Shown one piece after another: positions 3,620-40,744 of a stretch of 64,000 bases of DNA. Location: positions 12,881 through 76,880 of the forward strand of contig JBAQUL010000010.1 of assembly GCA_049297495.1 (NCBI GenBank). Reading direction: 5' to 3'. The stretch is from Candidatus Moraniibacteriota bacterium (lineage in GTDB: Bacteria; Patescibacteriota; Minisyncoccia; Moranbacterales; UBA2206). The notes beneath the pieces were generated by a model. That model was not told the DNA's origin. It did not search any database and saw nothing but the letters and a program-made list of their open reading frames with translations. Numbering within the stretch: position 1 is the stretch's first letter; every line of letters starts with the position of its first letter. A program made the position numbers and the translations under genes.

Positions 3620-3695
3620 CTGCACCTTTCCTTTCTTGGAGTTAAAGAACGTTGATAAAATAAAAAATGCCTAGAAATTAGACAGCTTATTTTTG

Positions 3696-3778
3696 TGGGC
3701 GAGGAGGGACTCGAACCCTCATGGAGCAAGCTCCGCAACATTTTAAGTGTTGAGTGTATACCATTCCACCACTCGCCC
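3696..3778 (-). tRNA. tRNA-Leu(TAA)
   Basis: Cloverleaf folded by hand: acceptor GGGCGAG/CTCGCCC, anticodon loop CTTAAAA, long variable arm, T-loop GGTTCGAGTCC. Confidence 0.75.
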
Positions 3779-3782
3779 AAAA

Positions 3783-4253
3783 TTATTTTTTTCGATTTCT
3801 CCCTCTGTGTGTTGGCTTTAGACTATGACAATTAGGACAAAGTACTCGCAAATTTTCTAGTCGATTGTCCTTACTATCACCATTAATATGATCGAGTTCT
3901 AATGGTAACCGCCCATCATTCGATATTTTATGCCACCCGCACTCTTCGCAATGCTTTGGCTTTAAACCAGCAACAAATAATCTTTTCTTCAACTTGAAGC
4001 TTTGAAAATTACTATCCTTTTTTAGAATTTCTTCTAACTCCTGACGTGGTTTTCCAATTCCACTCATTCCCTTATTCCAACCCTTTCCTGTGAAATGCTT
4101 TGTATTGATTTTGTAAAGCTCTAAAAACTTTTTTATTTGAGAATAGTTTCCTCCTGCTTCCTTCAGCTTCAATCTTTTTAAAACCTGCCTAACGCTTGTG
4201 GACAATTCAACTGCTTTTTTCAGTTCATTTTCTGTCCAACTTCTTTTTCTCAT
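3783..4253 (-). CDS. HNH endonuclease (free-standing, homing-endonuclease-like)
   Basis: C-terminal HNH motif LELDHINGDSKDNRLENLRVLCPNCH, with CEECG upstream. Sits between tRNA-Leu and tRNA-Cys. Confidence 0.7.
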   Translation of the reverse strand: MRKRSWTENELKKAVELSTSVRQVLKRLKLKEAGGNYSQIKKFLELYKINTKHFTGKGWNKGMSGIGKPRQELEEILKKDSNFQSFKLKKRLFVAGLKPKHCEECGWHKISNDGRLPLELDHINGDSKDNRLENLRVLCPNCHSLKPTHRGRNRKK

Positions 4254-7264: not shown

Positions 7265-7499
7265 ATCCCCAATAATAAGACTGATTGATTTTGGAGATAG
7301 TTACCCCCATTTCTCCCTCACCATAGCATAAATTAGAAAAAGGTCAAAATTTTGGCTTATTTCAGGATAAAAAACCGATTATGTCAAATGATTTCAAGAC
7401 GTGATAGTCCAATAGCTTGGAAACGTTTTTTAGCATAGAATAATCAGTTAACTATTTTCATCTGATTAATTAATTTCTCACAAACAAAAACCTCCTTTT

Positions 7500-7760
7500 T
7501 AGGGAGATTTTTGTCTTATCTGAGCGGGTAGGGGGAATCTTTTTCATCCGTCACTTCGCACGTGCCTACGGCACAGGCTCCGTTCCTCCCTGCCTACCAG
7601 CAGGCAGGCCTCAAAACCTGGGTTTTTAAAAAAGCAAAGCAGTTTGCTTTTTTAAAATACCCTTCGATTCCCCTAAATCATTGGCCAACATAAAAAAACA
7701 AAAATCTCCTTTTTCAAGAAGATTTCTATTTTATCTGAGCGGGTAGGGGGAATCGAACCC
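7500..7760. repeat. Imperfect direct repeat of about 50 bp (AAAAACCTCCTTTTT...TTATCTGAGCGGGTAGGGGGAATC) that duplicates the tRNA-Gly 3' end and trailer, flanking a roughly 195 bp insert that carries a CCTGCCTACCAGCAGGCAGG palindrome
   Basis: 7515-7540 is identical to 7737-7760 (24 bp). The palindrome at 7600-7620 is related to the GCCTGCCTGCCGGTAGGCAGG core of the MITE-like family. Confidence 0.5.
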
Positions 7761-7809
7761 CCCTCCTCAGCTTGGAAGGCTGATATAATAGCCACTATAC
7801 GACACCCGC
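7738..7809 (-). tRNA. tRNA-Gly(TCC)
   Basis: Hand-folded: acceptor GCGGGTG/TACCCGC, anticodon loop CTTCCAA, T-arm GGGGG-TTCGATT-CCCCC. Confidence 0.8.
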
Positions 7810-7890
7810 CTTCGTCACGCCGAAGCGTGACTACGGCGGGCGAAGCCCGCTAGTAGTCCGCGAAGGCGGACTTTCTTTTTTTCAATTTTG

Positions 7891-8759: not shown

Positions 8760-9719
8760 TTATCCCCTTTCCTCTGTTTCGTCAAGGAAATGGCCGAAAT
8801 CTAGAAAATCTTGCGGAAGTGGAGAATTGAACTCATAGCCGTTACCAAAAAGCACAAACTTGATTGACTGCGCATGAAGCAATTGCCTCCTGGCACTATC
8901 AAGACGGTCTATACCTCGCAAAAAGTATTTTTTATCCCCTACGATTGGATGACCAATTGATGTCAAATGCACTCGAATTTGATGCATCCGTCCGGTTTTG
9001 GGTGAAAGTTCCATGAGGGCATATTCATCCCCCAGGGTCCCTAGAGTTCGAAATCCAGTTTCAGCGTCACGAATTTTTGTCCTTGTCTTATGCCCAGCCA
9101 CCACCTGCCGTCTATAATCAGCTGAACGTGCCAAAGCCTTCTTAATCACACCCTCAGCCGGAACGGGCACGCCATACACAATCGCTTGATATTTTTTTTC
9201 AATTTCTTTGTCCTGAAACTGCCTCTTCAACTCTTCAAAAGTTGTCATATTTCTTGCAATCACGATCACACCACTAGTGTCCTTATCTAACCGATGCACA
9301 ATCCCCGGTCGCAACTTTCCTTCCTTCGTACCATCACAAACAGTTTCAGTTTCTGGAAAACTTGCCACTAAATAATTAACCAGAGTATCTTCTTTCCGTG
9401 TATCATCAGGGTGAACCTGCATACCAGCTGGTTTATCAATCACAATAATATTTTCATCGGAAAAAATTATTGGCAATTCCTTTTTAACTTTTGGCAATAT
9501 CACTTTCTCCTCGCTAAATTTAAAATCGAAAGTGATTTCATCATTATTTTTCAAAATATAACCCGACTTCACTTTTTCTTTGTTTACTAAAATTCTCTCT
9601 GCCTTAATTTGTCGAGAAATTTCACTGCGTGTAATTTTCCCATCAAAAAGAATCCCACTACTGAGGAATTTGTCCAATCGCTCACCTGAACTGTCTTTTG
9701 TAATAATTATTTTTTGCAT
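8760..9719 (-). CDS. rluD: RluA-family 23S rRNA pseudouridine synthase (RluD/RluC-like) with N-terminal S4 domain
   Basis: HRLDKDTSGVIVIARN catalytic motif, VIDKPAGMQVHP, and GRMHQIRVHL at the C-terminus. Confidence 0.8.
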   Translation of the reverse strand: MQKIIITKDSSGERLDKFLSSGILFDGKITRSEISRQIKAERILVNKEKVKSGYILKNNDEITFDFKFSEEKVILPKVKKELPIIFSDENIIVIDKPAGMQVHPDDTRKEDTLVNYLVASFPETETVCDGTKEGKLRPGIVHRLDKDTSGVIVIARNMTTFEELKRQFQDKEIEKKYQAIVYGVPVPAEGVIKKALARSADYRRQVVAGHKTRTKIRDAETGFRTLGTLGDEYALMELSPKTGRMHQIRVHLTSIGHPIVGDKKYFLRGIDRLDSARRQLLHAQSIKFVLFGNGYEFNSPLPQDFLDFGHFLDETEERG

Positions 9720-10063: not shown

Positions 10064-10357
10064 TTATTCCAAAAGCGCTTTGAGTCTGCGCACCTCTTCT
10101 TTCAGTGCCCCATCATTACCATACTCCCCATGATGCCGCGTATTCTCGCCATAAGTTTCTTTTTTCACATCGAGATGAATGTTAATTAACATATCCATTC
10201 CGGTCACCTTGACATACATATGAAACCTGGGGTAACCGGCCGCGGCCATCGGGCGCACAAAACTCATTTCATCACCTTCGTGCCTTTGAAAAGTATATCC
10301 CAGCCGGCGCAAATTATTCACCGGATTACCTTCGACATTTTTGACTTCGATTTGCAT
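10064..10357 (-). CDS. Hypothetical small protein (97 aa)
   Basis: Clean ORF with ATG start between a tRNA and folD. No recognisable motif. Confidence 0.4.
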   Translation of the reverse strand: MQIEVKNVEGNPVNNLRRLGYTFQRHEGDEMSFVRPMAAAGYPRFHMYVKVTGMDMLINIHLDVKKETYGENTRHHGEYGNDGALKEEVRRLKALLE

Positions 10358-18292: not shown

Positions 18293-18473
18293 ATATCCTC
18301 CTCGCCCCTCGGGAGAGCCTGCCTGCCGGTAGGCAGGGATGTCCGAAGGACAGGTGAGAGGAAGGGTAATATTAATTAGTATAAGCGTTATATCATAGGG
18401 AATAAAAAAATTTCAAAAGCCCTTTCCCTCATCCGGCCTTCGGCCACCTTTTCCCGGAGGGCGAAGGGGATAT
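18293..18473. mobile_element. MITE-like composite palindromic element, copy 1 (CCCCTCGGGAGAGCCTGCCTGCCGGTAGGCAGGGATGTCCGAAGGACAGGTGAG ... CCTCATCCGGCCTTCGGCCACC...CCGGAGGGCGAAGGGG)
   Basis: About 180 bp intergenic element whose two arms are imperfect inverted repeats. Two further full copies lie at 27617-27800 and 36531-36690. Confidence 0.55.
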
Positions 18474-18484
18474 AAATAAAAATT

Positions 18485-27532: not shown

Positions 27533-27616
27533 AAAAAAATTAAATTAATATTCTTACTATAAAATATACACTCAATATTAAACAATAAAACAATCTATTT
27601 GTCAAATTGTCCACAA

Positions 27617-27800
27617 CATCCCCTTCGCCCCTCGAGAGAAGCCTGCCTGCCGGTAGGCAGGGTGGTCGAAGGCCGGATGAGGGCAAGGGCTTTTGATAAA
27701 ATTATTACTATCCCACACAGAACATTTTCATATTTTGATATCACCCTTGCCCTCACCTGTCACGTGCTCGTGACATCCTCTCCCGAAGGGAGAAGAGGGT
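27617..27800. mobile_element. MITE-like composite palindromic element, copy 2 (overlaps the 3' end of the 27728-29776 ORF)
   Basis: CCCCTCGAGAGAAGCCTGCCTGCCGGTAGGCAGGGTGGTCGAAGGCCGGATGAGGGCAAGGG ... CCCTTGCCCTCACCTGTCACGTGCTCGTGACATCCTCTCCCGAAGGGAGAAGAGGG; same modules as copies 1 and 3. Confidence 0.55.
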
Positions 27801-29776
27801 TTTAAGTCAAATTGTTCCACGTGGAACAATTTCCACAAAAATACAATAAACAAAACCAAGCCAACAATCCCCCATTCTGACCAAATTAAAAGAAAAATAT
27901 TATGCACCGGCTGATATTGCCAGATTGCGAGATCAGGAAATAGCCGTTCCGCCTCAAAAATAAACTGTCCGGTTCCAGCCCCAATGATCGGACTCTCCGA
28001 AATGATCCGCTGCGAGATTGAAAGATATAAACCTCTTTCTTCCAGCGATTTCATAAATAAAGCGTAAAATTCAACTCTAAGGAAAAGCAGGCCTATCAAC
28101 ACGGCAAAACCCAAACCTAATAATATTCTAAATTGTTCCACGCTTGCCCGCCGAAGCCTTGGCGCAGGAGGGTGGAACAATTTTTTAATCGTTTCTCTTG
28201 AAATTGTTCCACGCTTGCCCGCCGAAGCCTTGGCGCAGGAGGGTGGAACATTTATGTACACAAGTGCAATGGTTAAAGCTAAAATGGCTGATTTAGAAAA
28301 AGAAAGGAATACCCCAATAACTTGAATCACTAGAGCAAATTTAATTAAATCCAAACCAAATGTTCCACGTGGAACATTTACCCGCATAACACTCTTGAAA
28401 TTGTTCCACGTGGAACAATTTTCGATAGGATCCGCCTGACTAGCTCCAGCCTTAAATTGTTCCACGTGGAACAATTTAATATACAACATTGTCATAATAA
28501 TGGAAAAAAACAAAAATCCACCCAAAAGATTGGGGTGCGGAAATAGGCCATAGGCCCGTATCAATGGATGATAATTAGCGATAATCTTTGCCACTCCGGC
28601 AATATCCGGCCCTATCAAGCTTTCTTTGAGCCAAAATAAGCCGATGGAGTGCTGAAGGATAAATTGAGCAATTCCGATCAAGGCCTGCGTGATTCCTGTG
28701 ATCATGATAATGCCAAAAAATACAATTGCCGCATTAATTGTTCCACGCTTGCCTGCCAGAGCCTTGGCGGAGGTTGGTGGAACAATTTGATAAAAATCTT
28801 TACTGGAAATGTTCCACGTGGAACATTTCCTGAAATCACTACTCCAAAAACCGATACCCACCAAAATGCCACAAACCAGCCAAAATAAAACCTGGCCCTG
28901 CCAGATATCCCATAAATAGTGGTCAAAAAGAGCAATTACTATCAAGCCCAATAAGATTGCACGGAAATATTGAGCCATTTTTGATAAAACACAGTTAAAA
29001 TGTTCCACGCCTGCCTGTCCGGTAGACAGGTGGAACATTTTTTCATTATTAGATCCAGACTCATCCGAAAATGTTCCACGTGGAACATTTTCGACATTTT
29101 CAGATCGCAAATTGTTCCACGTGGAACAATTGAGTATGCAGTATGGCACAAACCTGATAACGATATAGATACATAGAAAATACAGTTCCAAAAACCTAAC
29201 AGATCTATAAATACTAATTGCCTGATTTTCTGACCAATAAACTGATATAAACGACCAGACAATCAGAAGAAGGGGCAATAGGAAAATACCAACTGAGCAA
29301 AAATTGTTCCACCAACCTCCGCTAAGGCTTCGGCAGGCAGGCGTGGAACAAATTGCATTGTATTGTTCGTTGAAATGTTCCACGTGGAACATTTTCCGCA
29401 TTTTGATTAAACAAGGCTTAATATAAGCAAATAATCCTGTGGATAAGTTCTGATTAGGAGCGTTATTCACACTTTCTGGATAATCTATCTTGTGGATAAC
29501 TTCAGAAATATCCTCTCTGCTACTTGACGCTTTAGCTATTTTATCGTATAGTATAGATATAATCCAAACTAGGATCACAAGACATAGAAATATATCGGAA
29601 GCATAAACATATGCGCCGGTGTATTCATTAAAAGCACCTTTCAAAGGAAAGTAAAACATTACTTTTCTAACTCCAAGCGTAAAAGTCAATAAAAACAAAT
29701 AGAAAAGCCAAATGTCTTTTGGTTGTTTTTTGGCTTCTTTCCAGATATTCCCTATCTTTTCAGTTAAATTTGCCAT
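27728..29776 (-). CDS. O-antigen ligase/polymerase-like polytopic membrane protein, interrupted in frame by numerous palindromic repeat insertions in its inter-helix loops
   Basis: A 682-aa open frame with ATG start. Many TM helices and a C-terminal IIGAGTGQF motif typical of O-antigen-ligase-like proteins. Repeated peptide modules MFHVEHF / NVPRGTF / CSTWNN are all translations of one DNA palindrome. Confidence 0.5.
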   Translation of the reverse strand: MANLTEKIGNIWKEAKKQPKDIWLFYLFLLTFTLGVRKVMFYFPLKGAFNEYTGAYVYASDIFLCLVILVWIISILYDKIAKASSSREDISEVIHKIDYPESVNNAPNQNLSTGLFAYIKPCLIKMRKMFHVEHFNEQYNAICSTPACRSLSGGWWNNFCSVGIFLLPLLLIVWSFISVYWSENQAISIYRSVRFLELYFLCIYIVIRFVPYCILNCSTWNNLRSENVENVPRGTFSDESGSNNEKMFHLSTGQAGVEHFNCVLSKMAQYFRAILLGLIVIALFDHYLWDIWQGQVLFWLVCGILVGIGFWSSDFRKCSTWNISSKDFYQIVPPTSAKALAGKRGTINAAIVFFGIIMITGITQALIGIAQFILQHSIGLFWLKESLIGPDIAGVAKIIANYHPLIRAYGLFPHPNLLGGFLFFSIIMTMLYIKLFHVEQFKAGASQADPIENCSTWNNFKSVMRVNVPRGTFGLDLIKFALVIQVIGVFLSFSKSAILALTIALVYINVPPSCAKASAGKRGTISRETIKKLFHPPAPRLRRASVEQFRILLGLGFAVLIGLLFLRVEFYALFMKSLEERGLYLSISQRIISESPIIGAGTGQFIFEAERLFPDLAIWQYQPVHNIFLLIWSEWGIVGLVLFIVFLWKLFHVEQFDLKPSSPFGRGCHEHVTGEGKGDIKI
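27809..29404. repeat. Swarm of about 13 perfect CACGTG-centred palindromes (AAATGTTCCACGTGGAACATTT / AATTGTTCCACGTGGAACAATT), including long variants whose centre is expanded by GCTTGCCCGCCGAAGCCTTGGCGCAGGAGGGTG or GCCTGCCTGTCCGGTAGACAGGTG
   Basis: Copies at about 27809, 28131-28192, 28201-28254, 28358, 28398, 28453, 28735-28796, 28806, 28998-29041, 29068, 29109, 29301-29353, 29383. Irregular spacing; long variants occur in both orientations. Confidence 0.85.
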
Positions 29777-29969: not shown

Positions 29970-30017
29970 CACGATAAAACTGGCCAATTAGCTCAGTCTT
30001 GCCCCGCACCATTTTAT

Positions 30018-30091
30018 GGGTCTGTAGCTCAGTTGGTTAGAGCGCTACATTCACATTGTAGAGGTCTCCAGTTCGAGCCTGGACAGACCCA
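30018..30091 (+). tRNA. tRNA-Val(CAC), enclosed by a perfect 15-bp inverted repeat (30002-30016 / 30096-30110)
   Basis: Acceptor GGGTCTG/CAGACCC, anticodon loop TTCACAT, T-arm TCCAG-TTCGAGC-CTGGA. Flanks CCCCGCACCATTTTA ... TAAAATGGTGCGGGG. Confidence 0.8.
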
Positions 30092-30215
30092 CTCGTAAAA
30101 TGGTGCGGGGTGAAGTTAGAGCGTACGATTCACATTCGAGGATGTCACTGGTCCGCCTGCCCGCCTTTGGAGGAAACCCAGTATCGTCCACAACAAGCAT
30201 CCATTCATTATCCAA

Positions 30216-30287
30216 GCCTTCATAGCTCAATGGATAGAGCAAATCCGTCCTAAGGATGAGATGTAGGTTCGATTCCTACTGAGGGCA
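30216..30287 (+). tRNA. tRNA-Arg(CCT)
   Basis: Acceptor GCCTTCA/TGAGGGC, D-arm TAGCTCAATGGATAGAGCA, anticodon loop GTCCTAA, T-arm GTAGG-TTCGATT-CCTAC. Confidence 0.7.
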
Positions 30288-30297
30288 CACTATGCGG

Positions 30298-30370
30298 GGA
30301 GCAAATCCGTCCTAAGGATGAGATGTAGGTTCCCTGCCTGCCGGCAGGCAGGGATTCCTACTGAGGGCAC
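30298..30370 (+). repeat. Tandem partial copy of tRNA-Arg (D-stem 3' half through acceptor 3' end) in which the T-loop is replaced by the palindrome CCCTGCCTGCCGGCAGGCAGGGA
   Basis: GAGCAAATCCGTCCTAAGGATGAGATGTAGGTTC-[CCTGCCTGCCGGCAGGCAGGG]-ATTCCTACTGAGGGCAC versus the intact tRNA immediately upstream. Confidence 0.6.
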
Positions 30371-30589
30371 GAAAACTTGCCAAAACAAAAAAGATGGAGT
30401 ATACTCAACTTACGTTAATTATTAGGAAAAATGAATAGGGGAATGCTTTAATTCCTGACTTTTCTGCCAAACAAGGCTTTTCTTGATAATTTCCTCAATC
30501 CCGGGAAATTTTTTATTTTTATATAAAAGTTTAGACATTTTTAATCATTATCTTGCAGTCCTGATGTCAGCTGCAAAAAATTTAATCAA

Positions 30590-36477: not shown

Positions 36478-36530
36478 TTTTGACGGGAAAGTTTTTTTAC
36501 GGTAGGCTTAATAAGTTGATAAGCTTGCGA

Positions 36531-36690
36531 AATATCCTCCTCTCCCCTCGGGAGAGGATGTCCGAAGGACAGGTGAGGGCAAGGGCTATAAAATCAAAGA
36601 TAGTCCGAATAAATTAATTCTGGCTTAATTTAACACTCTTACCCTCATCCGGCCTACGGCCACCTTCTCCCGAGGGGAGAAGGGAAAATA
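36531..36690. mobile_element. MITE-like composite palindromic element, copy 3
   Basis: ATATCCTCCTCTCCCCTCGGGAGAGGATGTCCGAAGGACAGGTGAGGGCAAGGG ... CCCTCATCCGGCCTACGGCCACCTTCTCCCGAGGGGAGAAGGG; arms are inverted repeats; located immediately upstream of a tRNA pair. Confidence 0.55.
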
Positions 36691-36699
36691 TAATAATTC

Positions 36700-36775
36700 G
36701 GGCGTGTAGCTCAGTTGGTTAGAGCGCTACATTGACATTGTAGAGGTTTCAGAGGTTCGAGTCCTCTCACGCCCA
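36700..36775 (+). tRNA. tRNA-Val(GAC)
   Basis: Acceptor GGGCGTG/CACGCCC, anticodon loop TTGACAT, T-arm AGAGG-TTCGAGT-CCTCT; slightly long variable region. Confidence 0.7.
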
Positions 36776-36785
36776 CAAATAAAAA

Positions 36786-36857
36786 GGGACCATAGCTCAG
36801 TGGTAGAGCAGGGGACTCATAATCTCTTGGTCGCTGGTTCGAATCCAGCTGGTCCCA
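36786..36857 (+). tRNA. tRNA with CAT anticodon (elongator Met or Ile2/lysidine type; not initiator-like)
   Basis: Acceptor GGGACCA/TGGTCCC, anticodon loop CTCATAA, T-arm GCTGG-TTCGAAT-CCAGC. Anticodon stem lacks the three consecutive G:C pairs of initiator tRNAs. Confidence 0.7.
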
Positions 36858-36859
36858 CT

Positions 36860-36901
36860 ATAATCTCTTGGTCGTCCCGCTTTGAGCGGGACTAGTCCCA
36901 C
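36860..36901 (+). repeat. Partial copy of the tRNA(CAT) 3' portion (anticodon-loop 3' side onward) with the T-arm replaced by hairpin TCCCGCTTTGAGCGGGA
   Basis: TAATCTCTTGGTCG-[TCCCGCTTTGAGCGGGA]-CTAGTCCCAC versus intact ATAATCTCTTGGTCGCTGGTTCGAATCCAGCTGGTCCCAC. Confidence 0.5.
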
Positions 36902-36969
36902 AATTCAGATCAAAAAGAAAAAAGCGGAGAGCTATGATAAGCTTTCCGCTTTGTTTTTGTGGTTACCAG

Positions 36970-37485
36970 TCATTTACTATCTTCTAACATGAGAATATAT
37001 GGAGTATCCATAAATCCAAGCATCATATATTCTCCCTCCTTACGCCAACCTCTTTCCCCTCCATATCCATAAATACTCATAACAAACGAGAACATCCAGC
37101 GCTCCACGACTTTTTCTCTAAAGATAGCACCCCAAAAATGTAGCGCCTTATCATCCCATTCGAGAGGAATAAGATGGTTATTTTCAGCGAGTGCAATTCC
37201 TATATTAGGATGCAACACGTTTCTGCCTTCAATCTCACAATCAATAATTTCTTCTATTCCTTGATGATCTTGATACTTTCCCTGAATTGTTTGTAGAAAA
37301 ACTTTTTTGCCACCCACGTACAGACTTGCCTCACGCTTTTCTACGCTAACCCATCCCTGCTGATTTTTGTTTTTTAGAAAGGACATAATCTCACCATCTG
37401 CATCCGTACATTTTGGATCAACAAACATATCAAGATTCACCCGAATTTCATTTTCACTAATTTTCTCCCAGCATTTTTCTTCCAT
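36970..37485 (-). CDS. Hypothetical protein (171 aa)
   Basis: Clean ORF with ATG; bidirectional terminator hairpin at 36912-36952. No motif recognised. Confidence 0.45.
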   Translation of the reverse strand: MEEKCWEKISENEIRVNLDMFVDPKCTDADGEIMSFLKNKNQQGWVSVEKREASLYVGGKKVFLQTIQGKYQDHQGIEEIIDCEIEGRNVLHPNIGIALAENNHLIPLEWDDKALHFWGAIFREKVVERWMFSFVMSIYGYGGERGWRKEGEYMMLGFMDTPYILMLEDSK

Positions 37486-37614
37486 TTTTTATCTCCCTTG
37501 CGATTCTATTAAGTTTTCAATGAACTTCTTCCATTCCCTGAAACCACTTCACCATTGAAATGATTTCGGAAATGGAGCCGAATTTGTATGTTAACAAATT
37601 CGGCTTTGGTGGTT

Positions 37615-38007
37615 TTAGCCGGAAAAAACTTGGATAAGCCTCAATATCAACGTGTCCATCTCAGCACAATAAGGCTTGGTAAAAAGATGGAAATCCTTTT
37701 TTGCCTTTTCTTCGACTTCTTTTTTGTCCCTAAGAAAACAATTTCGCACAATGCCCATAATTGGATGTTCGCTGCGGTTTCTTTGCTCATTAATATTTTC
37801 AAAATCTTCATACAACCCTGAATTGATTTTAAATATTCCCTCAGCACGGAGAATTTCCTTTAGTTTTTCATTGAAAAAATCAATATCTTCTTGCGAAATA
37901 GCCATAAAATATGGATACGCTTTTTCCGCTCCAAAACATGTGCAACCTCCTTCTTGTTTGCGTATTTCGGCAATAGTTCTAATGAAATCTATAATTTCTT
38001 TTTTCAT
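37615..38007 (-). CDS. Hypothetical protein (130 aa)
   Basis: The ATG at 38007 (MKKEIIDF...) is preceded by an AGGAGAGGA Shine-Dalgarno; the longer ORF-track start at 38061 lacks one. Confidence 0.45.
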   Translation of the reverse strand: MKKEIIDFIRTIAEIRKQEGGCTCFGAEKAYPYFMAISQEDIDFFNEKLKEILRAEGIFKINSGLYEDFENINEQRNRSEHPIMGIVRNCFLRDKKEVEEKAKKDFHLFTKPYCAEMDTLILRLIQVFSG

Positions 38008-38560
38008 TTTTCCTCTCCTTTTTTGATTTTCTCCGCAGTATAGCCTCTGACCAGTCCACACTATGCAAACCCAGACATTAGCTGATATTTAGTTTTCAAA
38101 CAACTGAGCTATCTAAGAGTCTAGATAAACTCTAGGAGAGACGGAAACTTTTCTGTCTCTCACTAGAATTTACGGTTCAATCTCATGTTCAGTTTGGTCA
38201 TCTCGTCTGTGGATTTCTCTTTTGCAATCAAATAGATAATATTTTTCTTTTTCTTTCTCCGCCTCTTCTTTGGAAGGAAAGTGCCAGAACTGGCTGAGAT
38301 ATTGTCTGGTTTTTTCCGACATAATTGGAACGTCTCCGACAACCATTCCATTATTCAGGATCATTTTCATAGTTTCTTGCTTAATGTTTAGTTCGTTAAG
38401 ATTTGGCTGAGCTTCTTTTTCCCCCGTTTTATCTTAACAACCTAGTATATACCAAAACCGCCCTGATGTCATATATGTCGACAAGGATATTTTTTGACTA
38501 ACTTATTGCTTTAGTATAGAATAATTATAGTTGTCTGATTTTCGGACATAATACTAAATA

Positions 38561-39337
38561 ATGCCAAATATGGACAATAAGTTATACAAAGTGCTGCTTA
38601 ATTTGGGACTTAGCGATAATGAAGCGCTGGTCTATTTGAGCGCGCTTTCTTTGGGCAAAACCACAATCCTGGCCATTTCCAAGGCCTCGGAAGTTAAAAG
38701 AACCACTGTTTATTCAGCAGTCGAATCATTGAAGCAATTGGGACTGATGAAGGTCGAGCAGATCGGCTGGAAAACCTTTTTTTCTGCGGAAAATCCGGAA
38801 AAACTGGAAAGGATAATGGATAATAAGAAAAAGGAACTTCAAGAATCGCTAGTTGATTTCAAGGCGCTCTACAGCGCTGACGGAGGGAGCAGTCTAATTA
38901 AATACTATGAAGGCGTGGAAGCGGTGAAAAATATCCATCTAGATCTGCTGGATGAGGTGAAATTCGGAGAGGATTATTGGGTGATTAGCGATTCCGCTAA
39001 ATGGATGTCGGAAGACCAAAGATTTTTTGAAAACTTCGTGGAAAAACGGGCGCAAAAAAAGCTCAATAACCGCCTTTTGCTCCAAGATTCAGAAATTGCC
39101 CGAAAATATAAACAAAACGAAGCAATATATAATTTGCAGATAAAGATTTTTCCACAAGATATGCAGCTCTCGGCTTCCATCACAATTACGCCAAATAAAA
39201 TCCTCATCCACCAAACCACCCCGCCAGTTATTGCAATGGTAATTGAAAACAAAAACATTATCCGCTTGCACAGGGAACTTTTTGAGTTTATGTGGAAAAC
39301 AATCGCGGTAGATCAAGAACTTACGCATTTGAATTAA
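38561..39337 (+). CDS. TrmB-family HTH transcriptional regulator (paralog 3 of 3)
   Basis: N-terminal winged-HTH (LGLSDNEALVYLSALSLGKTTILAISKASEVKRTTVYSAVESLKQLGLM), about 258 aa. Confidence 0.7.
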   Translation: MPNMDNKLYKVLLNLGLSDNEALVYLSALSLGKTTILAISKASEVKRTTVYSAVESLKQLGLMKVEQIGWKTFFSAENPEKLERIMDNKKKELQESLVDFKALYSADGGSSLIKYYEGVEAVKNIHLDLLDEVKFGEDYWVISDSAKWMSEDQRFFENFVEKRAQKKLNNRLLLQDSEIARKYKQNEAIYNLQIKIFPQDMQLSASITITPNKILIHQTTPPVIAMVIENKNIIRLHRELFEFMWKTIAVDQELTHLN

Positions 39338-39436
39338 AACTGTCATCTTGAGCGAAAAAATACTTATCACCGCAAAAAAAACCACTAAATTAATTAGTGG
39401 TATTTTCATATAATCCCTTAAGTGATACTGTAGTGG

Positions 39437-39700
39437 CTATGATTTATCATCACACTCTTCAGTTAGGACAATAGGCTCTTCGTCGTTATCCTCAGCCTTA
39501 TCTTCAGCTTTATCATCTAGGTCTATGGAAGCAGCAAATTCCGCACCGCCTAAAGCTAAAATACGCTCCGCCTCTTTCCTGTCTAGAGAACTGACTTTCT
39601 CCAATGGCTTTTCTGATCCACCAGGTCTTGTGCCAATTTCAGCATAATCCTTTTTCGCATTTTTACCGCTATTGATTAGTTCTGGAGTCTCGTGTCCCAT
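39437..39700 (-). CDS. Hypothetical small acidic protein (87 aa)
   Basis: ATG start; highly acidic C-terminus (DLDDKAEDKAEDNDEEPIVLTEECDDKS). Confidence 0.4.
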   Translation of the reverse strand: MGHETPELINSGKNAKKDYAEIGTRPGGSEKPLEKVSSLDRKEAERILALGGAEFAASIDLDDKAEDKAEDNDEEPIVLTEECDDKS

Positions 39701-39772
39701 AATTTTGATTTTTTATACTTATTTAGATCCTCCCTATCATAGCACACTGGCATTTTTATCAAAATAGCTACG

Positions 39773-40744
39773 CTATTTCTTCCTCCGCGAATGAAACGCC
39801 TGATGGACTTCTTTTAGTTGTTTATTAGTAACATGTGTATAAACCTGCGTTGTCGTTATCGAGGAATGTCCCAGCATCGCTTGAACGGAGCGAATATCAG
39901 CACCATTAATAAGCAAATCAGTTGCAAAAGAATGGCGCAGAGTGTGAGGGTGGACATCTTTAACGATTCCAGCTTTTACGGCATAGTATTTTACGATTCT
40001 TTGGACTGATCTTGGCGTTAACCTCAAGTTATCCCCGCCTGCAACGCTATGCGTAGCATTGCGGGCAGGCCCGGCTTTTTTGGCATTTTTGCCTTCAAAT
40101 TTCTTGAGTCCGGCAACATCTCGCACAAAAAGCGCTGGATCAACGTCTGTGCGCTTGTCCAGATATCTACCTATCGCTTGCGCGGCAGAGTCAGAAATAA
40201 AGACCACCCGCACCTTATCTCCTTTGCCTCGCACGCTCAACTCTCGCCCCCTAAGATCAATCTTTTCACGATTAATGCCAGTTAACTCTGAAACACGCAA
40301 GCCAGCCGAAAATAATAGCTCTAAGATGGCACGATCACGCAAACTCTTGAGATCTTGCCCGCTTGCCTCAGAAAGAATTCGCTCCACCTCTTCCATCTCC
40401 AAGAAACCTACCTCTCGATTTGATGACCTGCCAATTTCAATTTTTTCGGCCTGTAAGGAGTCTATATCTCTTTTAGCTAGAAATTTGAGAAAACCACGAA
40501 TTGCAATAACATAGTAACCTTGGGTGATTTTTTTAAGCTTTTGCCCAGTTGCGTCTTCATAGCGGTTAAGATAAACACGAAAATTCCTCACAACTTCAGC
40601 TGTAATTTGCTCAGGCTTGGAAATTTTTGACCATTCCAAGAAGCGCCTGAGATAGTGATCATAATTCTCAATTGTTTTTTGAGAACGACCCTTCTCAATC
40701 TCCAGATACTCCAGGAATTGGATCTCAAGTTCTTTGATTTGCAT
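39773..40744 (-). CDS. xerC: Tyrosine site-specific recombinase, XerC/XerD family
   Basis: N-terminal SAM-like core-binding domain; C-terminal catalytic region HTLRHSFATDLLINGADIRSVQAMLGHSSITTTQVYTHV with the catalytic Tyr. Confidence 0.8.
   Translation of the reverse strand: MQIKELEIQFLEYLEIEKGRSQKTIENYDHYLRRFLEWSKISKPEQITAEVVRNFRVYLNRYEDATGQKLKKITQGYYVIAIRGFLKFLAKRDIDSLQAEKIEIGRSSNREVGFLEMEEVERILSEASGQDLKSLRDRAILELLFSAGLRVSELTGINREKIDLRGRELSVRGKGDKVRVVFISDSAAQAIGRYLDKRTDVDPALFVRDVAGLKKFEGKNAKKAGPARNATHSVAGGDNLRLTPRSVQRIVKYYAVKAGIVKDVHPHTLRHSFATDLLINGADIRSVQAMLGHSSITTTQVYTHVTNKQLKEVHQAFHSRRKK

Follow-up and report, generated by a model that had tools for sequence, protein, structure and literature searches.

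Of all parts of a bacterial chromosome, tRNA genes usually count as the most stable, and a partial tRNA gene is as a rule taken for the scar of an integrase. Williams is said to have mapped, in 2002, the sublocations at which crossover takes place in tRNA genes, with the anticodon loop and the T-loop as the typical ones. Repeated tRNA 3' ends are known from the tyrT locus of Escherichia coli. In archaea, tRNA genes reportedly carry inserts at the D-, variable- and T-loop, some of which Fujishima and Sugahara are said to have proposed to transpose between tRNA genes. Among small palindromes, the GC-rich PstI palindromes of Neurospora mitochondria reportedly adjoin tRNA genes (an observation ascribed to Yin et al. 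in 1981), the small dispersed repeats of cyanobacteria reportedly nest and insert in hairpins (ascribed to Elhai in 2008) and the palindromic elements of Rickettsia reportedly insert in frame within genes (ascribed to Ogata in 2000). The attL and attR fragments at integrated elements are the usual explanation of partial tRNA genes in prokaryotes (PMC9897764). The GC clusters of yeast mitochondria are short GC-rich hairpins in an AT-rich genome, which are dispersed, merge, nest and have spread between species by flank recombination (PMC4478555), and REP/REPIN sequences, palindromic repeats of very small size, behave like mobile DNA (PMC3116915).

The window (the whole 64,000-nt stretch of DNA analysed here) is a piece of the chromosome of an uncultivated bacterium of the Candidate Phyla Radiation (CPR), a member of the Moranbacteria. 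It contains partial copies of three intact tRNA genes, those for tRNA-Arg(CCT), tRNA-Met(CAT) and tRNA-Gly(UCC), at the positions given by the original prediction, and a 20-nt palindrome, hereafter P20. As at attL/attR sites, an intact tRNA gene is followed by a same-strand copy of its 3' part (Arg, 34 + 18 nt; Met, 15 + 9 nt; Gly, 18 nt plus trailer); in contrast to such sites, no element or integrase lies between the repeats, and 5' fragments upstream, nesting of whole genes in D-loops and breaks in all four loops also occur. P20 shares with the yeast GC clusters and the Neurospora PstI palindromes that it is a short, dispersed, GC-rich hairpin element in an AT-rich genome. The latter, however, are organellar, 30-50 nt long and flanked by an AG target duplication, whereas P20 is 20 nt long, perfect and without a duplication, lies inside tRNA-coding loops and palindrome centres, and is common to CPR bacteria and viral contigs. 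Unlike REP/REPIN sequences, P20 is a single, perfect palindrome with no GTAG head and with no RAYT or other partner protein seen in the window (GTAG precedes it in one viral contig only), and, compared with REP/REPIN, the cyanobacterial repeats and the Rickettsia elements, P20 alone shows an explicit preference for tRNA loops. The positions of the inserts match those in archaeal tRNA introns and split or permuted genes (D-, variable- and T-loop), but the bulge-helix-bulge cannot form around P20, which pairs with itself end to end, the carriers lack their 5' half or are degenerate, and the organism is a bacterium. Free-standing homing endonucleases of phage tRNA gene clusters, such as SegB of phage T4, offer a parallel in that tRNA alleles have been replaced in a region where an HNH endonuclease gene (3783-4253) abuts a tRNA gene; however, no endonuclease gene lies beside the Arg, Val, Met or Gly loci, and clean homing would leave no nested halves. 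In a literature search we found neither a description of nested tRNA genes in bacteria nor the string of the palindrome, and both tRNA nesting and loop-seeking palindromes appear to be undescribed.

We conclude, at a probability of roughly 0.68, that the partial copies are non-functional remnants of earlier tRNA genes, left after repeated disruption and replacement in the Moranbacteria lineage. DNA has been inserted at positions that encode the loops of the cloverleaf (D, anticodon, variable and T), and the inserts are of two kinds: a small GC-rich palindrome (P20, TCCGCC..GGCGGA or CCCCGC..GCGGGG) and a complete replacement tRNA gene within a long stem. The working gene stands inside or just upstream of the old gene, with the 5' piece of the latter upstream or lost and its 3' piece downstream on the same strand. 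In a census of 81 sequences (1.35 Mb of related sequence; every sequence used in this work is a metagenome-assembled genome (MAG) or metagenome contig), 31 of 38 tRNA fragments lay within 300 nt of an intact tRNA gene, although only 6.6% of bases are that near, and all 38 were on the same strand as that gene; 21 were 3' pieces downstream and 6 were 5' pieces upstream. By our own reading, most of the breaks coincide with positions in the D-, anticodon, variable or T-loop, and they vary from genome to genome.

The features of the tRNA-Arg locus are as follows.

30216-30287, plus strand: intact tRNA-Arg(CCT) (ARAGORN and Rfam), with an upstream flank (...catccaa) common to the window and L003
30288-30298, plus strand: 11-nt filler, cactatgcggg(g), outside the ancestral trailer; its GCGGGG end resembles that of the right arm in the Val units
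30299-30332, plus strand: copy of tRNA-Arg positions 22-55 (3' strand of the D-stem to T-loop TTC), 34/34 identical; family D17
30333-30352, no strand assigned: P20, CCTGCCTGCCGGCAGGCAGG, a 20-nt perfect palindrome between T-loop TTC and GATT, without target duplication
30353-30370, plus strand: copy of tRNA-Arg positions 56-73, identical, followed by the ancestral trailer and an rpsA promoter-like site
30377-30405: the rpsA promoter-like site (promoter scan)

The palindrome had been described as replacing the T-loop of the copy. In fact, both T-stem strands and all seven T-loop bases are retained, and P20 is a pure insertion of 20 nt. In L003 and L004, an intact tRNA-Arg runs straight into the trailer found behind the window's copy, and comparison with L003 shows that the flank upstream of the window's tRNA-Arg is also ancestral, which means that the copy holds the ancestral position. 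Comparison of the same loci in relatives, as the original prediction had proposed, thus finds the partial copies present in some and absent from others, with L003 and L004 providing the empty site for Arg. A third relative, L001, has P20 at the same T-loop site and with the same sequence (9600-9619), retaining GGTTC + P20 + GATTCCTACTGAGGGCAC, and the tRNA-Arg(CCT) in use there belongs to another sequence type and matches that of the distant L016 at 100% identity. This indicates replacement by an imported gene. The independent assembly L236, a Logan contig from run SRR28062683, reproduces the copy, the palindrome and the junction with the trailer. We note that the Arg remnants of L001 and the window are identical at 43/43 positions while the adjoining trailer is only ~79% identical, which requires either recent independent events at one hotspot or constraint; such identity is unexpected for old neutral DNA and counts against an account based on decay.

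The original prediction, correct in its three loci, missed a fourth case, a tRNA-Val(CAC) gene nested at 30018-30091 within an older one.

29982-29997, plus strand: 5' remnant of an older tRNA-Val(CAC), ggccaattagctcagt (acceptor strand, D-stem and start of the D-loop), decayed
29998-30017, plus strand: left arm of the stem around the inner tRNA-Val, cttg + CCCCGCACCATTTTA + t
30018-30091, plus strand: intact tRNA-Val(CAC), within the D-loop of the older gene (ARAGORN; Rfam, 68.3 bits)
30092-30114, plus strand: right arm, c tcg TAAAATGGTGCGGGG tgaa, which pairs with the left arm
30115-30191, plus strand: 3' remnant of the older tRNA-Val(CAC), whose T-loop has taken up 24 nt of GC-rich sequence at 30153-30176 (comparison with L003)
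36700-36775, plus strand: uninterrupted tRNA-Val(GAC), an empty-site allele; in L001 a nested Val unit splits this gene

The ortholog of the older gene is intact in L003 (9564-9638; GGATGATTAGCTCAGT...), and in the window its remains, 16 nt of the 5' part and 77 nt of the 3' part, lie on either side of the inner gene. The 3' piece corresponds to the L003 gene from position 19 to its end, apart from the insertion and point changes, and has no tRNA score in Rfam at E <= 5; the decay of the outer gene further comprises three changes in its 5' acceptor strand. The left arm and 30096-30110 form a 15-bp perfect inverted repeat around the inner gene, and the nested unit folds coaxially (outer D-stem, long stem, inner acceptor stem; z = -8.05), the junction consisting, by inspection, of the D-stem, a 3x3 internal loop, 3 bp, a 1x2 bulge and the long stem. 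Near-identical units with a GAC anticodon are nested in L001 and L003, and their stems differ from that of the window by a double compensatory change (CCCCGCACC/GGTGCGGGG in the window versus CCCCACACC/GGTGTGGGG in L001 and L003). The outer pieces in L001 (16646-16661 and 16784-16842) are 100% identical to the window's tRNA-Val(GAC). Nesting at the Val(GAC) locus is found in about seven relatives, and L054 has three layers of nesting. Further, six Val genes are flanked by inverted repeats of 11-17 bp, compared with a maximum of 11 bp, reached once in 910 pairings, in the controls. Miniature inverted-repeat transposable elements (MITEs) combine terminal inverted repeats with a target-site duplication of fixed length. 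The outer junctions of the nested Val units are conserved (CAGT/CTTGCCCC ... GGGGTGAAG/TTAGAGC, where the slash marks the junction); no clear target-site duplication was seen at them, and L077 has a 34-nt direct repeat in place of one. Scans of viral contigs for the nested-Val junctions gave one chance match each, in coding DNA with no tRNA.

At the tRNA-Met locus, the following features were identified.

36786-36857, plus strand: intact tRNA-Met(CAT) (ARAGORN and Rfam)
36860-36874, plus strand: copy of tRNA-Met positions 34-48, which run from the second base of the anticodon through the variable region
36875-36891, plus strand: GC-rich hairpin TCCCGC-TTTGA-GCGGGA, TCCCGCTTTGAGCGGGA, exactly in the place of the T-arm; the orthologous hairpin is present in L001
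36892-36901, plus strand: copy of the acceptor 3' strand that has diverged by one change (CTAGTCCCAc versus CTGGTCCCAc)
36921-36952, plus strand: intrinsic-terminator-like hairpin and T run, the Met remnant lying between the gene and this hairpin

As had been proposed, the 15-nt T-arm of this copy is gone and a hairpin stands in its stead, with an 8-bp stem if the flanking G and C are included. Swaps of the same kind occur in L010 (Met) and L008 (Ala), and same-size exchanges of T-arm for hairpin are seen in Met and Ala copies from four genomes; simple insertion does not explain so precise a swap. Between the Met remnants of the window and L001, the flanks derived from the tRNA have diverged but the stem of the hairpin is identical, which, together with the compensatory change in the Val stems, gives a hint of selection on structure. 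A metagenome scan for Met-type copies with the pattern CTTGGTCG N16-30 CTRRTCCCAC returned at least 120 chance matches, in GC-rich coding DNA, and none of those listed was in a tRNA context.

The tRNA-Gly locus lies on the minus strand, which the original prediction had left unstated.

7737-7809, minus strand: intact tRNA-Gly(UCC) (ARAGORN and Rfam)
7696-7754, minus strand: direct repeat 1, the last 18 nt of tRNA-Gly and a 41-nt trailer with a terminator-like hairpin; family D9
7540-7695, minus strand: 156-nt insert of nested hairpins
7482-7539, minus strand: direct repeat 2, the remnant of the tRNA-Gly 3' end (18/18) and a diverged trailer; 51/59 identical overall

A copy of the 3' end and trailer is indeed present here, but the 24 bp ascribed to it were too short: the repeat covers 59 nt, 51 of them identical (7754-7696 versus 7539-7482), with a local alignment score of 88 compared with 33 for the best of 300 shuffles. 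The insert contains the T-loop and T-stem in inverted orientation (GGGGAATCGAA, 7663-7673), the shared AAAACCCAGGTTTT core and a P20 variant (7589-7608), and related inserts follow tRNA-Val and tRNA-Ala in L052, tRNA-Val in L044, tRNA-Pro in L080 and a tRNA in L048. With Rfam 15 at permissive thresholds, nothing credible beyond the intact tRNAs was found at the three window loci or in the L052 inserts, and neither the remnants nor the 100-nt insert class had a credible match.

P20 occurs four times in the window compared with an expectation of 0. Together with the clustering of fragments beside tRNA genes and the agreement of L236, this number indicates that the pattern is not due to chance. 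A further family of sites is intergenic.

18318-18337, no strand assigned: P20 variant in a composite intergenic hairpin repeat; families D5, D7 and D13

A second copy of the composite repeat is also filled by P20 (27642-27661), and a third (36532-36590) is without it and represents an empty site inside the same genome. P20 had been regarded as the cargo of an element that targets tRNA genes. That tRNA genes are insertion targets in the window and that the small palindrome looks mobile is borne out, but P20 is independent of any such element, being a separate dispersed 20-nt sequence also found in intergenic repeats, within an ORF, in unrelated viral contigs and, among other tRNA remnants, at positions in the D-, anticodon and variable loops. 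In tRNA-Arg at TTC^GATT, in tRNA-Leu of L019 and L058 at AATT^GGTA and in tRNA-Arg of L057 at GGATA^GAGC, the gain is exactly 20 nt and no duplication accompanies it. P20 also enters the centres of other palindromes, and GC-rich hairpins stand exactly mid-way in a 20-24-nt AT-rich palindrome. These comparisons support the view that P20 is an independent, apparently mobile insertion. Flanking stems of 5 bp or more were present at 21% of P20 sites in CPR loci compared with 5% of controls, and flanking direct repeats of 6 nt or more at 20% of P20 sites in viral contigs compared with 6%; as this enrichment is only moderate, insertion in hairpin loops is clear for tRNA loops and the AT-rich palindrome and not for every site. 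The viral contigs (38-68% GC) contain 43 exact P20 sites, and cultured plasmids and phages gave only partial, chance-level matches. We also considered that the P20-bearing copies could be working genes with introns, which a deletion test rejected: removal of P20-like sequence from the carriers never restored a full tRNA in CPR loci, and no cloverleaf was called for the remnants with the palindrome kept or removed. Since the palindrome-bearing remnants are, in addition, not scored as tRNA by Rfam at E <= 5 and the outer Val gene has mismatches, we consider the carriers dead.

The remnants thus have the marks of pseudogenes left by tRNA turnover, being on the same strand as, and adjoining, a working isoacceptor gene and having an empty site in relatives. 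In themselves, the remnants amount to ordinary decay, with two exceptions in L001, the Arg remnant and the outer Val pieces, in which none is visible. At the Arg locus, we propose that a replacement copy with a GCGGGG arm entered at the border of D-loop and D-stem and that recombination of the two 5' parts then deleted the left arm; P20 in the old T-loop may have been the original lesion that favoured replacement or may have landed later in a dead copy. New copies would come partly from other Moranbacteria, probably by DNA uptake and recombination with conserved tRNA sequence as the homology anchor. The palindromes would move by a structure-specific process directed at the apexes of hairpins.

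An alternative that we consider unlikely is that the remnants, or the GC-rich hairpins and the stems around nested genes, are functional RNA elements kept for their action in the tRNA precursor, possibly in 3'-end protection, in termination before the rpsA promoter, as processing signals or as insulators against mispairing of leftover tRNA sequence. The Arg and Met remnants do lie within transcription units: no terminator is present between tRNA-Arg and its copy, and the Met copy precedes its terminator. The preserved stem of the Met hairpin, the invariant Arg remnant of L001 beside its diverged trailer, the compensatory change in the Val stems and the very strong fold of the nested Val unit point in the same direction. 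However, the closest relatives have no remnant at the corresponding loci (Arg in L003 and L004, Met in L002, L003 and L005, Gly in L237), and this absence, with the visible decay, also weakens the earlier suggestion of processed RNAs resembling tRNA halves. Moreover, the break points differ between genomes, the outer Val pieces are plainly decayed, a terminator-like hairpin precedes the Gly remnant, Rfam has no matching family and the symmetry of a palindrome can persist without selection on RNA.

Tandem duplication alone, through slippage or unequal crossing-over, with random decay thereafter and the hairpins incidental, is in our view improbable. The copies are adjacent, on the same strand and partly identical, the Gly repeat takes in the trailer, and E. 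coli tyrT provides a precedent. Duplication does not, however, account for the Arg filler, which lies outside the trailer, for nested genes that retain both old halves with junctions conserved in different genomes, or for identical palindromes at identical loop positions in different tRNAs and genomes. In addition, L001 keeps its palindrome-bearing Arg remnant behind an upstream gene of a different, imported type.

The duplication of a tRNA 3' part by an integrating tyrosine-recombinase element that was later almost wholly deleted, which is close to what was originally predicted, is very unlikely. A direct repeat of the 3' part with the intact gene upstream is the classical attL/attR pattern; the Met copy starts in the anticodon loop and the Gly copy in the T-loop, which are typical sublocations of crossover; and a tyrosine recombinase is encoded at 39773-40744, the window having ~2.9 kb more up to tRNA-Met than L002 and L003. 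Yet only 2 (Met), 11 (Arg) and 156 nt (Gly) separate gene and copy, which leaves no kilobase element, no integrase lies within the repeats and the sole tyrosine recombinase is 2.9 kb off and syntenic in many relatives without copies. We sought a second repeat at the distal end of the 2.9-kb segment that follows tRNA-Met and found none, and 5' remnants upstream, nested complete genes, D-loop breaks and palindromes in other loops are left unexplained. An assembly artefact is hardly credible. All sequences are indeed MAGs or metagenome contigs, and L236 is broken off within the repeat. Yet many MAGs of unrelated studies show these architectures, a sequencing read is much longer than any of the repeats, and L236 independently has the copy, palindrome and trailer junction.

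Returning to turnover by disruption and replacement, we tentatively suggest, as a possibility on which we would not rely, that one structure-specific process moves the Val unit, P20 and the other hairpins into hairpin apexes, tRNA genes being prime targets because they encode three stem-loops. The Val version would then be a selfish "kill-and-replace" tRNA gene that enters the D-loop of the resident isoacceptor gene, destroys it and supplies the lost function, and that could spread between species, conserved tRNA sequence serving as its homology arms; P20 would rank with the smallest mobile elements known. We could tie no transposase, nuclease or reverse transcriptase to the remnants, the nesting or the palindromes, and a Y1 transposase (RAYT) is absent among the 19 window ORFs scanned against Pfam. 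Whatever moves the inserts, working tRNA genes in this reduced CPR genome sit inside their predecessors, imported alleles replace native ones and tiny palindromes hit loop-coding positions with base precision, a process other than integrase scarring. If a dedicated mechanism drives it, very small mobile DNA of a new kind would be defined, and with it a new horizontal route for tRNA genes. In practice, the remnants break assemblies, annotation may mistake them for tRNAs or att sites, and tools that search CPR genomes for islands could be misled by them. A cyanobacterial origin of the window was rejected: HIP1 sites number one, which equals chance expectation, and the encoded proteins assign the window to the Moranbacteria. 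Finally, among the unrelated viruses that have P20 in common with CPR bacteria, the tRNA-Met of L105 is complete and carries P20 as a long variable arm.

The window carries the housekeeping genes rpsA and rplS and those for a class A PBP, FTHFS and DXS, and the best relatives of its S1 protein (86-92% identity) are found in MAGs labelled Candidatus Moranbacteria or Moraniibacteriota, of the Candidate Phyla Radiation (CPR). A scan with the S1 protein yielded 80 syntenic loci (L001-L080; 1.35 Mb including the window), which underlie most of the comparisons made here and most of which cover the Ala-(Val)-Arg tRNA cluster upstream of rpsA and the Val-Met pair ~6 kb downstream. ARAGORN and Rfam detected 13 intact tRNAs in the window, including the following:

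30216-30287, intact tRNA-Arg(CCT) (ARAGORN, Rfam)
36786-36857, intact tRNA-Met(CAT) (ARAGORN, Rfam)
7737-7809, minus strand, intact tRNA-Gly(UCC) (ARAGORN, Rfam)

The original prediction held that each of these genes is accompanied by a partial copy of itself, and all three repeats are indeed present. At the Arg locus, an 11-nt filler is followed by an exact copy of gene positions 22-55 (30299-30332), a 20-nt perfect palindrome CCTGCCTGCCGGCAGGCAGG (P20) and an exact copy of positions 56-73 (30353-30370). P20 lies between the T-loop TTC and GATT, and no bases are lost; the T-loop was thus interrupted and not, as had been proposed, replaced. In L003 and L004, the same tRNA-Arg type is joined directly to ...AAAACTTGCCAAAACAAAAAAGAT..., an rpsA promoter-like region (TTGCCA-17-TATACT), which in the window comes after the palindrome-bearing copy and not after the intact gene. 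Because this trailer follows the copy, and because the sequence immediately upstream of the intact gene (...catccaa) is common to L003, both outer flanks are ancestral, and the extra material therefore consists of the tRNA 3' two-thirds and the filler cactatgcgggg. Comparison of the same tRNA loci in relatives, which had been suggested as a check, thus revealed that the Arg copy is missing from L003 and L004, and that a palindrome-bearing remnant is present in L001, which reads GGTTC+P20+GATTCCTACTGAGGGCAC followed by the same trailer. L001 is the decisive case: its intact tRNA-Arg(CCT) belongs to a different sequence type, which matches the gene of the distant L016 at 100% identity and departs at many positions from the type in the window, L003 and L004. 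As the intact gene is foreign, the native L001 gene was displaced by an imported one and left only as a stump, which shows import from other Moranbacteria. The L001 remnant is identical to that of the window at 43/43 positions, whereas the adjoining trailer is ~79% identical, a contrast that points to independent hits of recent date at a hotspot, or else to constraint.

At the Met locus, the copy begins 2 nt past the gene, at the second anticodon base, and continues to the end of the variable region; TCCCGCTTTGAGCGGGA then stands exactly where the T-arm belongs, as originally described, and a copy of the acceptor 3' strand with one mismatch follows. The orthologous remnant in L001 has TCCCGCC-GA-GGCGGGA, and an analogue in the distant L010 has CCCCGCC-CGT-GGCGGGG. 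The same CCCCGCC-loop-GGCGGGG stem, with the loop CGT on the tRNA strand, replaces the T-arm of a tRNA-Ala remnant in L008. Simple insertion does not explain this swap, in which an arm of 15-17 nt gives way to a hairpin of 16-17 nt with identical borders in two different tRNAs. The CCCCGC...GCGGGG core is also the outer part of stems around nested tRNA-Val genes, and its right half is the end of the filler before the Arg copy. From this sequence likeness, we take the T-arm-swap hairpins, the nested-Val stems and the filler end to be one putative hairpin family.

A fourth and clearer case is a nested tRNA-Val(CAC) in the same cluster as the Arg copy. Between tRNA-Ala and tRNA-Arg, the window reads ggccaattagctcagt / cttgCCCCGCACCATTTTAt / tRNA-Val(CAC) 30018-30091 / ctcgTAAAATGGTGCGGGGtgaa / gttagagcgtacgattcacattcgagg...cccagtatcgtccac, where the outer Val pieces are two parts of a tRNA-Val(CAC) that is intact in L003. 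The break in the outer gene falls in its D-loop; its 5' acceptor strand differs at three positions and its T-loop bears a 24-nt insertion. A perfect inverted repeat of 15 bp surrounds the intact inner gene. The unit is predicted to fold into one long helix stacking the outer D-stem, the inverted repeat and the inner acceptor stem (z = -8.05), and the difference between CCCCGCACC/GGTGCGGGG in the window and CCCCACACC/GGTGTGGGG in L001 and L003 amounts to a double compensatory change. L001 and L003 contain a nearly identical unit with anticodon GAC that splits a tRNA-Val(GAC). Since the gene split in L001 is base-for-base the uninterrupted Val(GAC) of the window (36700-36775), the window represents the empty site for the L001 nesting; the gene split in L003 is a different, decayed one. 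Further variants occur in L009, L054 (three layers), L057 and L077. No account of a tRNA gene sitting whole inside the D-loop of a gene for the same isoacceptor was found in the literature searched.

A repeat of the tRNA-Gly 3' end likewise exists, although it comprises 59 nt (51 identical, including a terminator-like trailer) and not the 24 bp first reported. Its two copies bracket 156 nt. At the start of this segment, the T-loop and T-stem of the tRNA itself are repeated in inverted orientation (GGGGAATCGAA), able to pair with GATTCCCC of the remnant; the segment also holds nested hairpins, the core AAAACCCAGGTTTT and a variant of P20. Downstream of five further tRNA genes (Val and Ala in L052, Val in L044, Pro in L080 and a tRNA in L048) lie homologous inserts of ~100 nt. 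On the left, every one of them bears an inverted stretch of T-loop that matches the neighbouring tRNA; on the right, four have a 12-18-nt copy of the 3' end of that tRNA, the L048 copy being truncated by the end of the contig. Multi-hairpin folds are predicted for these inserts (z about -2.2 to -2.5), and no Rfam family matched them. In the close relative L237, the position is occupied by tRNA-Gly(GCC) with no remnant. The acceptor and D arms of the two genes (window 7737-7809, L237 1606-1678) are nearly alike, whereas the anticodon arm and T-stem differ, which could reflect either an isoacceptor switch or another replacement. The spacer between tRNA-Phe and tRNA-Gly (7815-7885, minus strand) is taken up by a row of three GC-rich hairpins whose loops are of the CTTCG type (gtccgccttcgcggac, agcgggcttcgcccgc, gtcacgcttcggcgtgac), conserved in L237.

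To survey such fragments, all 184 intact tRNAs were compared with the loci by blastn-short, with intact genes masked. This gave 38 fragment clusters. An intact tRNA is no more than 300 nt away for 31 of them, although only 6.6% of bases are that close, and all 38 share the strand of the nearest tRNA. Those within 300 nt include 21 downstream 3' pieces and 6 upstream 5' pieces; the four exceptions to this order are artefacts of assignment to the next gene of a cluster, or an intron-split gene. Break points, in our own reading of the coordinates (approximate to ±2 nt), fall in the D-loop (~10) and T-loop (~5) and also at variable-region and anticodon-loop positions.

P20 is not tRNA-derived. With its one- and two-mismatch variants it occurs four times in the window, where none is expected, and it recurs in CPR loci in intergenic hairpin clusters and at the following sites:

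P20 sites in related loci (^, point of insertion)
AATT^GGTA, D-loop: tRNA-Leu remnants of L019 and L058
GGATA^GAGC: Arg 5' remnant of L057
GGTTA^GAGC: L025
Anticodon region and after GGTTC: L077

Every gain is exact, with no target duplication. An empty site is seen in the window itself, where a composite repeat (36532-36590) reads ...CTCGGGAGAG|GATGTCCGAAGG... and its copies at 18293-18371 and 27616-27694 have 20 nt at this junction. Removal of all P20-like sequences from the loci never uncovered a complete tRNA; the CPR carriers are thus truncated pseudogenes, and their reading as intron-bearing genes was ruled out. In IMG/VR, P20 occurs at 43 sites in 35 stretches of 38-68% GC. Among them, L112 has P20 in the D-loop of a fragmentary tRNA, and L105 (2239-2330; 64% GC) has it in the variable loop of a phage-type tRNA-Met(CAT) that is complete and that ARAGORN reads as a 92-nt tRNA with P20 as a long extra arm. 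The latter is the sole P20 carrier that might still be functional; L082 holds a degraded copy of it. The P20 string was not found in the literature searched or in cultured plasmids and phages. A second palindrome, AWTGTTCCAC|GTGGAACAWT, has 12 copies at 27811-29393, within an ORF for a 682-aa Wzy_C-like protein (27728-29776, minus strand), and 237 in the orthologous region of 37 loci. A minority of copies (4 of the 12, with 21 or 30 nt) carry a GC-rich hairpin, some P20-like, exactly at the centre; the clear hairpin-type inserts measure 21, 30, 33 or 42 nt, lengths that are all divisible by three, as an in-frame location would predict. Taken together, GC-rich perfect hairpins show a 2.3-fold enrichment within 300 nt of tRNAs.

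We conclude that the partial copies are what is left of displaced tRNA genes as a result of insertions at loop-coding positions, in a host genome that apex-seeking GC-rich palindromes have colonised; this description is well supported. For the underlying mechanism, we infer that at the Arg locus a replacement copy would have entered at the D-loop/D-stem border, and that the left arm would then have been lost by recombination between the two 5' parts, leaving the gene, ...GCGGGG and old positions 22-73. New copies could plausibly arrive by DNA uptake and recombination anchored in conserved tRNA sequence, because tRNA genes are the longest near-identical stretches between genomes otherwise 76-79% identical. 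P20 in the Arg T-loop may have been the damage that made replacement beneficial, or it may have struck later, when the copy was already dead.

The main rival is that the hairpins and stems are functional, in precursor processing, termination or folding insulation, a role that they could have even if the remnants themselves are relics. The integrase att-site model originally put forward is not supported, given the wrong element size and the lack of an integrase within the repeats and of a far-end repeat, although the intuition of tRNA-targeted mobile DNA behind it is supported. Assembly error is unlikely, as the architectures recur in many unrelated MAGs and in L236, an independent same-strain contig (Logan assembly of SRR28062683). 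Position 1 of this contig falls exactly within the Arg partial copy, indicating that short repeats at tRNA loci fragment short-read assemblies. Plain tandem duplication is contradicted by the filler, by the foreign L001 allele and by the nested halves.

In their working, the present remnants resemble tRNA fragments that integrating elements leave behind (PMC9897764), yet they fall outside that family by its defining tests. Archaeal non-canonical tRNA introns occupy corresponding positions, but here there is no bulge-helix-bulge motif and there are no complete exons. The palindromes behave like cyanobacterial small dispersed repeats and Rickettsia palindromic elements, the in-gene forms of the latter resembling the in-frame palindromes of ORF 27728-29776. 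Mitochondrial GC clusters (PMC4478555) and REPINs (PMC3116915) also work alike. The palindromes differ from all four systems in size, perfect symmetry, absence of target duplication and explicit use of tRNA loop positions. The remnants as such are products of ordinary decay. The processes behind them (nested replacement genes, and a loop-seeking 20-nt palindrome also carried by viruses) seem to be variants, not yet described, of known kinds, and merit a proper census.

Several further features were noted. The composite intergenic repeat (18293-18480, 27616-27780 and 36525-36690) comprises several nested or adjacent GC-rich hairpins (e.g. CTCTCCCCTCGGGAGAG, TGTCCGAAGGACA, CCGGCCTTCGGCC, CCTTCTCCCGGAGGGAGAAGG) and sits upstream of operons including the Val-Met tRNA pair, with related pieces in L001 and L002. 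Downstream of tRNA-Met, ~2.9 kb (36960-39770; two ORFs without Pfam match and a TrmB-like regulator) separate it from a tyrosine recombinase gene (39773-40744); L002 and L003 lack an equivalent of this segment, the end of their recombinase gene lying ~75 nt past tRNA-Met, and a flanking tRNA repeat was looked for and not found. A small conserved ORF lies beside tRNA clusters in the window (10065-10340, minus strand; MQIEVKNVEGNPVNNLRRLGYTF...) and in L080 (~1255 onward; MKFTIKDITDNPVNLLRRAGYAF...). In L011 (5699-6388), tRNA-Met(CAT) is interrupted in the anticodon loop by ~620 nt matching the group I intron model RF00028 (79.3 bits), a case of a group I intron in a CPR tRNA gene. Finally, an ORF for a 156-aa HNH endonuclease (3783-4253, minus strand) ends 4 nt before tRNA-Leu(UAA) (3695-3778, minus strand). 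The best 120 of its 4248 homologs are all at least 68% identical and belong to Moranbacteria, Liptonbacteria, Saccharimonadales, Levybacteria, Magasanikbacteria, Falkowbacteria and others. Six other contexts were inspected (Moranbacteria relatives, one genome labelled Liptonbacteria at NCBI and several genomes with another gene neighbourhood), and in each the ORF lies directly upstream of or overlaps tRNA-Leu(UAA) despite differing surrounding genes; the pair looks like a conserved or mobile module.
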